Positions 39,481 through 39,557 of a DNA stretch of 64,000 nucleotides are shown piece by piece. The notes below the pieces were generated by a model. The model did no database searches and was not told the origin of the DNA. It saw only the letters and a list, made by a program, of their open reading frames with translations. Each line of letters starts with the position of its first letter. Position 1 is the stretch's first letter. The DNA comes from a virus. Made by a program: the position numbers and the translations under genes. The stretch lies in IMG/VR virus record IMGVR_UViG_3300045988_130630. One strand, 5' to 3'.

Positions 39481-39488
39481 AAAAAATA

Positions 39489-39534
39489 CCTCCTTCCATT
39501 AACTTCTAATATATTTTAAAAGAAAGGAAGGAGG
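39489..39534 (-). promoter_or_regulatory. anti-SD/SD hairpin sequestering the ribosome-binding site of gene 39052-39480
   Basis: On the - strand transcript, CCUCCUUCC (from 39526-39534) lies 28 nt upstream of, and is perfectly complementary to, the GGAAGGAGG SD (39489-39497) of the downstream gene. Confidence 0.4.
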
Positions 39535-39557
39535 ATTATTTATTTAAGGCCTATCTA

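Follow-up and report, generated by a model that had tools for sequence, protein, structure and literature searches.

A conserved RNA hairpin predicted to mask the ribosome-binding site of a membrane-protein gene downstream of ruvC in a TAG-recoded gut phage

The window (the whole stretch of viral DNA analysed here, 64,000 nucleotides) is an AT-rich phage segment (29.8% GC) in which TAG is a sense codon, in a code-15-like manner. Long open reading frames (ORFs) appear only under TAG read-through: those of at least 100 aa cover 63.0 kb if TAG is sense and 33.6 kb under the standard code. In-frame TAGs are dense in the late genes of the + strand (for example, 83 in 954-9278 and 26 in 23173-30918) and sparse or absent in most replication genes of the - strand. 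No tRNA genes, and hence no suppressor tRNA, were identified within the 64 kb. A DNA similarity search against GenBank phages returned only short matches to the dUTPase gene. Strong AGGAGG-type Shine-Dalgarno (SD) sequences are the rule among the genes of the window. This usage and the labels of the MAG bins that contain relatives (Mollicutes, Oscillospiraceae, Eubacterium and Bacilli) hint that a low-GC organism of the Bacillota type, not Escherichia coli, is the probable host. The last 250 bases (63750-64000) have 44% GC in a region that otherwise has 24-38%; this segment contains the 3' end of a - strand ORF extending past the window edge, possibly a gene of recent acquisition.

A late and structural module on the + strand (283-39017), with many in-frame TAGs, converges on a DNA-metabolism module on the - strand (64000-39052). 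At their junction an inverted-repeat scan identified an intrinsic terminator that is bidirectional (39001-39047, both strands), with a perfect 21-bp stem and T-runs on either side. The + strand module also contains a lone - strand gene (35126-35842) for a 238-aa protein matching phrog_8810 (unknown function) and resembling, by eye, a response-regulator or LytTR-type DNA-binding protein. Two near-consensus promoters and a bidirectional terminator belong to this gene (flanks 35080-35123 and 35895-35945), which may encode a regulator or be a moron.

The - strand module encodes a DnaB-like and a Dda-like helicase, a DnaE-like polymerase and NrdD/NrdG-like proteins (the last three recognised from their sequence), together with a dUTPase (recognised from its sequence and by DNA match). 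Several promoter-like sites on this strand (at about 59185-59213, 61780-61800, 51177-51205 and 49180-49200) consist of TATAAT or TATTAT followed by ATTTATATAA or ATAAATATAAAT, a shared extended motif that points to a promoter class of the phage's own for the replication module. The DnaE-like gene is split between two frames (49148-49086, - strand, and a main ORF at 48994-45158). Its 19-codon N-terminus, MRSYFNCHSHTMYSNLRLL, is the start of a PHP-domain motif, has its own SD (AAAGGAGGG) and ends in CUU UGA C (49094-49088), with the remainder in the +1 frame. The same heptamer serves in the programmed +1 frameshift of prfB (RF2). The split arrangement recurs with synonymous differences in several relatives (L159-L161, L170 and the 72-73%-identical L192 and L194), and other relatives have an in-frame CTT or TTA GAC without the extra T at this site. 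The split probably reflects programmed +1 frameshifting and not an error of assembly; this is intriguing given the altered reading of stop codons in this phage.

The last gene on the - strand (39052-39480), here called gene X, encodes 142 aa when its three in-frame TAGs are read as Q, and its transcript end is marked by the terminator at the module junction. It is preceded by a gene for a RuvC-like Holliday-junction resolvase (39558-40070, - strand; 170 aa, TTG start, TAA stop and three in-frame TAGs), whose product matches phrog_827 and phrog_159 (E about 1e-13), and, further upstream in the same operon, by the dUTPase gene dut (40103-40621, - strand), which has no TAG. The ruvC-like and X ORFs are open only with TAG as sense, and these two are the genes of the operon with multiple in-frame TAGs. 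A consensus sigma-70/SigA-type promoter (TTGACA-17-TATAAT with TG; 41697-41725, - strand) matches at 12 of 12 positions, a consensus match only. The terminator scan found nothing on the - strand between this promoter and gene X, and the operon orf186-orf86-orf82-dut-ruvC-X probably starts at this predicted promoter.

Between ruvC and X lies an inverted repeat on the - strand whose 3' arm is the SD of gene X. The 5' arm (39526-39534; CCUCCUUCC as RNA, CCTCCTTCC as given for the DNA) begins 23 nt after the ruvC stop codon and mimics the 3' tail of 16S rRNA; it pairs with the SD GGAAGGAGG (39489-39497) across an interval of 28 nt (39525-39498). An 8-nt spacer, UAUUUUUU (39488-39481), separates the SD from the ATG at 39480. 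The first-pass annotation had noted this complementarity between an anti-SD and the SD, and its coordinates for both arms, the interval and the AUG are exact to the base. It had not mentioned two features that bear on the interpretation: the terminator-like U-run after the stem, and a separate SD-masking hairpin at ruvC.

Folding of the - strand from 39560 to 39470, which had been proposed as a check, gave a minimum free energy structure of -26.3 kcal/mol (z = -4.6; none of 200 shuffles folds as well) that contains the 9-bp SD/anti-SD helix. Inside it is a helix of 7 bp (39503-39522), in which CUUUUAA (39522-39516) pairs with UUAGAAG (39509-39503) around a 6-nt apical loop. Outside it, an A-rich strand (39535-39556), beginning 2-3 nt past the ruvC stop, forms an A/U-rich outer helix with a downstream strand (39472-39488) that comprises the U-run UAUUUUUU (39488-39481), a terminator-like tail, then the AUG (39480-39478) and codons 2-3 of gene X. 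The SD/anti-SD helix persists in contexts of 201 nt and 230 nt. A search of Rfam returned only sub-threshold miRNA noise and no RNA family was detected.

To place this structure among the other genes of the window, we ranked 43 of them by the free energy predicted to be required to unpair positions -16 to -5. Gene X ranks first with 21.3-21.7 kcal/mol, ruvC second with 15.1-15.4 kcal/mol, the next gene requires 9.9 kcal/mol and the median is 3.9 kcal/mol. The mean pairing probability of the gene X SD, 0.93, is also the highest among window genes with a genuine SD. Upstream of some late genes on the + strand, a strong hairpin comes to within 0-10 nt of the SD (20709-20796, 23113-23172, 31150-31224 and 33543-33607). 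These exclude the SD, unlike the hairpins at ruvC and X, which include it; they could act in partial termination or in RNA stability.

Protein searches of IMG/VR and GTDB contigs with the gene X product yielded about 140 loci, in which the X proteins are 42-98% identical. The gene order is the same in all relatives: dUTPase, the RuvC-like gene, the hairpin, X and a convergent gene for a small HExxH protein, with a distance of 60-90 nt between the ruvC stop and the AUG of X. The dut-ruvC-hairpin-X synteny holds with or without TAG codons in the genes, and the hairpin is present both with a TAG-bearing X (the window and L112) and with a TAG-free one. Since it is kept in the relatives without a TAG in X (L092, L094 and L150), the hairpin and stop-codon recoding are independent devices.

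In all 50 distinct upstream sequences of the relatives the SD is paired with a probability of at least 0.72 (mean 0.93). The stem sequences differ among about 16 sequence-distinct groups, with the SD as 3' arm in every case. Arm pairs (5' with 3') include AAUCCUCCUUUCUUAAC... with ...GUUAAGAAAGGAGGAUU, AUCCCCUUACUUAAAAUU... with ...AAUUUUAAGAAAGGGGAU, UCCAUUCCC with GGGAGUGGA, and UUCUUUC with GGGAGGA, joined through U·G pairs. The inner helix is likewise replaced by different complementary sequences in other clades. RNAalifold, applied to an alignment of 22 representative relatives, recovered exactly the anti-SD:SD helix, and seven of its eight pairs show compensatory changes. Cells of the alignment are paired in 93.7% of cases, compared with 56-71% in controls in which the partner was slid by 1-3 columns; 21 cells with double changes were observed against 4-11 in the slid controls, and none of 500 shuffles matches the observed covariation score. 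The SD/anti-SD duplex is real and evolutionarily maintained, and is not a product of chance.

These data also bear on the idea that the element, which is an inverted repeat in the DNA, acts there as a protein-binding site or cruciform, or is simply a fortuitous repeat. For a fortuitous repeat the expectation is low: the window contains three perfect 9-nt inverted repeats (at least 6 G/C, loop of 3-40 nt) against 0.13 expected from dinucleotide shuffles, and the 9-mer and its complement each occur once in the 64 kb. As for a DNA palindrome, the arms turn over completely, with the SD always in the 3' arm. The wobble pairs are all U (5' arm)·G (SD arm) on the sense strand, where they keep the pairing, and equal A·C mismatches on the other strand. 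In addition, 46 of the 50 sequences fold more stably in the sense than in the antisense orientation (mean difference 5.1 kcal/mol). The orientation of the wobbles and the better folding of the sense strand imply selection on the mRNA and not on a DNA palindrome, and both versions of this idea appear to us extremely improbable.

An RNA element at this position could serve principally as an intrinsic terminator or attenuator that ends the dut-ruvC transcript before X, with the SD placed in the stem for economy of space. In the window, an A-tract precedes the stem and UAUUUUUU comes after it; clades B and D and several others satisfy the stem-plus-T-run rule, and hairpins also stand directly 5' of the SD at other late genes of the window. 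The U-run, however, is absent in about 7 of the 16 clades, whereas pairing of the SD is universal, and because the U-run is not conserved termination can be a secondary role at most. The terminator scan did not call the window hairpin, which has a 28-nt interval and a stem split by an internal loop. The seven clear intrinsic terminators of the window (895-930, 9283-9311, 23113-23144, 35080-35123, 39001-39047, 51699-51668 and 59240-59213) have perfect stems of 12-20 bp with short loops and T-runs, and always leave the following SD outside the stem. One relative (L146) carries a separate terminator-like hairpin upstream of its SD hairpin, and the analogous hairpin at ruvC has no U-run. Finally, the space between the stem and the AUG is too short to accommodate a promoter, which means that the 3' (SD) arm is part of any X mRNA. 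We therefore judge termination as the main function to be quite unlikely. It is nevertheless plausible that the window hairpin is also a leaky terminator, acting through the U-run that follows its stem. A U-rich tail comes after the hairpin in the window clade, and in roughly half of all clades, and there termination is inseparable from masking.

If occlusion of the SD is what is selected, the question becomes how it is relieved. The first-pass annotation had suggested that the duplex might be thermosensor-like, melting at higher temperature and so turning X on. Pairing of the SD is the defining layout of the ROSE and fourU thermometers and this element shares it, but the predicted cost of opening the SD is 23.7, 21.3, 19.6 and 16.4 kcal/mol at 30, 37, 42 and 50 °C, respectively. 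A cost that is still 16 kcal/mol at 50 °C disfavours a thermometer, as do the near-perfect 20-30 bp stems of some relatives and the origin of the samples, gut-type metagenomes of constant temperature. We give this reading almost no credence.

The same annotation had offered coupling as another possibility. In the version considered here, ribosomes finishing ruvC would open the hairpin, and X would be made only with full-length RuvC, requiring TAG suppression in this phage. Here the hairpin at ruvC itself (40069-40108, - strand), detected by the inverted-repeat scan and then folded (z = -3.0), provides a useful comparison. Its arms, AAGUAAUUACCUC (40108-40096) and GAGGUAAUUACUU (40081-40069), are 13 nt long and 100% complementary. 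They mask the SD, the spacer and the TTG start, and the dut stop codon lies inside the 5' arm. A ribosome modelled on the dut stop lowers the opening cost of ruvC from 15.1 to 6.1 kcal/mol, and for this reason ruvC looks translationally coupled to dut; its lock would be analogous to that of X but openable by a ribosome terminating on dut. Hairpins of unrelated sequence mask the ruvC SD in three relatives (L092, L094 and L112), and clades in which the ruvC start overlaps the dut stop have neither an SD nor a hairpin there.

The design that fits ruvC so well, and which thereby lends coupling some credit in this operon, fits X poorly. We modelled a ribosome parked at the ruvC stop by forcing the region from 12 nt before to 10 nt after the stop to be single-stranded. 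The outer helix starts 2-3 nt past the stop, and in some relatives the opening cost falls substantially: from 17.7 to 6.7 kcal/mol in L120, from 14.8 to 9.9 in L144 and from 14.9 to 9.4 in L147. In the window, however, the anti-SD is 23 nt beyond the stop and 18.2 of the 21.3 kcal/mol remain, while clades B and D, with the longest stems, show no relief (22.3 to 22.8 and 26.1 to 26.5 kcal/mol). The 60-90 nt between stop and AUG found everywhere are, moreover, long for coupling. Dependence of X on ruvC translation is thus very unlikely in our estimation.

A further alternative dispenses with relief altogether. The hairpin might be a constitutive throttle that sets a very low, constant translation of a dose-sensitive membrane protein. 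The SD is occluded in every relative, our searches identified no release mechanism, and homologues of X are found in lysis cassettes, where dosage matters. Against this, the predicted cost of opening the SD spans 6 to 26 kcal/mol across relatives with the same conserved protein, so that a constant setting would give expression differing by many orders of magnitude, and at 21 kcal/mol essentially no initiation is expected. We consider such a throttle unlikely.

The reading we prefer, and which we think reasonably probable, is that the element is a cis-acting, RBS-occluding hairpin that functions as a translational lock over the SD and AUG of gene X. The first-pass annotation's description of a translational off-switch is borne out as the best reading, given the strongest predicted RBS occlusion in the window and the conservation of the duplex. 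Gene X would be the last cistron of a dut-ruvC-X transcript from the upstream host-type promoter. Once the SD is transcribed, the 16S-like anti-SD would fold onto this unusually long SD and 30S subunits would be blocked from it on the polycistronic mRNA, leaving X untranslated by default. Because relatives with the same protein differ in hairpin stability over a range of 6 to 26 kcal/mol, release should be insensitive to the strength of the stem, and we infer that it occurs through an event independent of stem stability.

The most likely such event would be production of an RNA without the 5' arm, either from a late or internal 5' end (as for genes e and 49 of phage T4) or by endonucleolytic cleavage of a long stem. 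Cleavage fits the 22-30 bp stems of several clades, for example the 25-bp hairpin of L019 in clade B, and not the shorter ones. RNase III in particular is not a universal option because in several clades, including that of the window (9 bp, an internal loop and 7 bp), the stem is shorter than about 20 bp or interrupted. As regards a new 5' end, no sigma-70-type promoter-like site was found on the - strand between 39480 and 39750, nor any consistent -35/-10 geometry upstream of X across clades. The best-conserved intergenic element is an A/T-rich ...TAAT that abuts the 5' side of the anti-SD, with no consistent -35 partner; as a sign of a promoter it is suggestive, not diagnostic.

Three other candidates for release were considered and rejected. 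An upstream ORF of 13 codons (39577-39536, +1 frame) ends 2 nt before the anti-SD, but its ATG is ATA in a close relative (L007) and other clades have no equivalent ORF. An anti-anti-SD pairing with the 3' end of ruvC amounts to a weak A/U-rich match to the inner stem only, and folds that include 110-200 nt of upstream context still mask the SD. Lastly, a sigma-70-type promoter built on a conserved upstream TTGG was discarded: this TTGG is the Trp codon at the C-terminal end of RuvC, and it lies at a variable distance of 7 to 25 nt from the hairpin.

The protein and its neighbours bear on what the lock would control. The first-pass annotation called the product of 39052-39480 a small transmembrane protein, and one N-terminal hydrophobic helix is indeed predicted (Kyte-Doolittle 1.74 over 19 residues), followed by an extended helical part and, at the C-terminus, a conserved motif (...SYRFRLxQLC...GYMT..QY.QL.EF..Y..LGGNGQAKEYY). 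The protein matches PHROG 4105/4257, both function-unknown families, and gave no matches in Pfam, NCBIfam, PADLOC or the PDB. A single-sequence AF2 model is all-helical, with a low-confidence pLDDT of 65.6 that is too weak for a fold search. A large protein search returned more than 2,400 database relatives, only unnamed near-identical proteins. Remote homologues (30-32% identity, E about 1e-4) were found by tblastn. In Streptococcus phage Javan18 and Tetragenococcus phage phiWJ7 they are encoded immediately upstream of the holin and lysin genes, and in Faecalibacterium phage FP_Lugh between the endolysin and holin genes; in all three the start is ordinary and unmasked. This gene neighbourhood provides a lead that X may be a lysis-associated (holin-like) membrane protein. 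X itself has no holin match in Pfam, PHROG or NCBIfam and is not beside an endolysin gene in the window. X does not fit the type I toxins, which are short hydrophobic peptides of less than about 60 aa with a cis-encoded antisense RNA; X has 142 aa and is conserved in its operon context. The window contains a separate holin candidate (34671-35081, + strand), which matches phrog_13712 (E = 7e-38) and has a single hydrophobic segment at its N-terminus. Its gene directly precedes the bidirectional terminator at 35080-35123, and no endolysin gene was recognised in its vicinity.

These strands can be combined, although we offer the result as speculation that is possible but rather improbable as a whole. 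RuvC and X would be late-acting proteins encoded at the end of an early or middle operon and silenced by two independent keys, the masked RBS and, in this lineage, the in-frame TAGs. The lock on X would be opened only by a late-phase RNA whose 5' end lies inside the hairpin, so that a gut phage of Bacillota with recoded stop codons would have arrived convergently at the scheme of T4 genes e and 49, and X would act with the holin in timing lysis. Public gut metagenomes contain this phage lineage very commonly, and a covariation-supported lock on the last two genes of the operon makes the temporal control of an uncultured, TAG-recoded phage accessible to testing. It also points to X, whose family occurs together with holins, as a protein for which dose or timing is important.

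Masking of an SD by upstream RNA has been described in several well-studied systems. In MS2 (coat/replicase and lysis genes) and in E. coli atpHA, a downstream SD is masked by upstream RNA and translation is coupled. The ruvC hairpin of the window fits this design, with the dut stop inside the 5' arm, whereas the masking strand at X is outside the upstream ORF, past the reach of a terminating ribosome. The mRNAs of type I toxins (for example, hok, tisB, fst and bsrG) have their SD sequestered by an anti-SD in the 5' UTR and need RNA processing. As at X, a CCUCC-type anti-SD locks the SD of a membrane-protein gene, but X is longer than such toxins, is a conserved part of a phage operon and comes with no evidence of an antisense RNA. 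The sdi stem-loop at the RBS of the lambda S holin gene tunes initiation, choosing between the S107 and S105 starts. This too is an RNA stem-loop at the RBS of a membrane-protein gene, one concerned with lysis timing; X, on the other hand, has a single conserved start and a far more stable structure. An intercistronic RNase III site in Bacillus phage SP82 (Hue et al. 1995, as listed in PMC7509114) reportedly has a polypurine (SD-like) 5' stabiliser. It resembles the X element as an intercistronic hairpin in the mRNA of a Bacillota phage whose downstream strand contains a strong SD-like polypurine run, and differs in that the stems of several X clades, being too short or interrupted, are not typical RNase III substrates.

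A different kind of brake has been proposed for recoded phages, in which stop-codon recoding restrains late and lysis genes and the transmembrane proteins of lysis cassettes are preferentially recoded (Borges et al., bioRxiv 10.1101/2021.08.26.457843); the operon described here likewise has in-frame TAGs in ruvC and X only, three in each.

The closest precedent for the lock on X is provided by T4 genes e and 49. In T4, early transcripts that read through from upstream keep the RBSs of e (lysozyme), 49 (endonuclease VII, a Holliday-junction resolvase), soc and I-TevI sequestered. Late transcripts start from a promoter (TATAAATA) located within the DNA for the 5' strand; they lack this strand, which frees the RBS. 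T4-related phages keep such RBS-sequestering structures (PMC3014915). As is proposed for X, pairing with upstream RNA buries the SD and/or AUG on transcripts initiated at upstream promoters and blocks translation, and the T4 targets, among them a lysis gene and one for a Holliday-junction resolvase, have parallels in X and ruvC. The two systems differ in that T4 has its late promoter in the 5'-strand DNA while none was found at X, in the host (E. coli as opposed to a probable low-GC Bacillota-type organism) and in the genes themselves, which are not homologous to T4 e. Set beside these systems, the lock on X is a new and well-supported example of a classical device and introduces no new principle; what makes it of interest is where it occurs, in a TAG-recoded gut phage that is abundant and uncultured and that has paired locks, one on a resolvase gene and one on a holin-associated gene.
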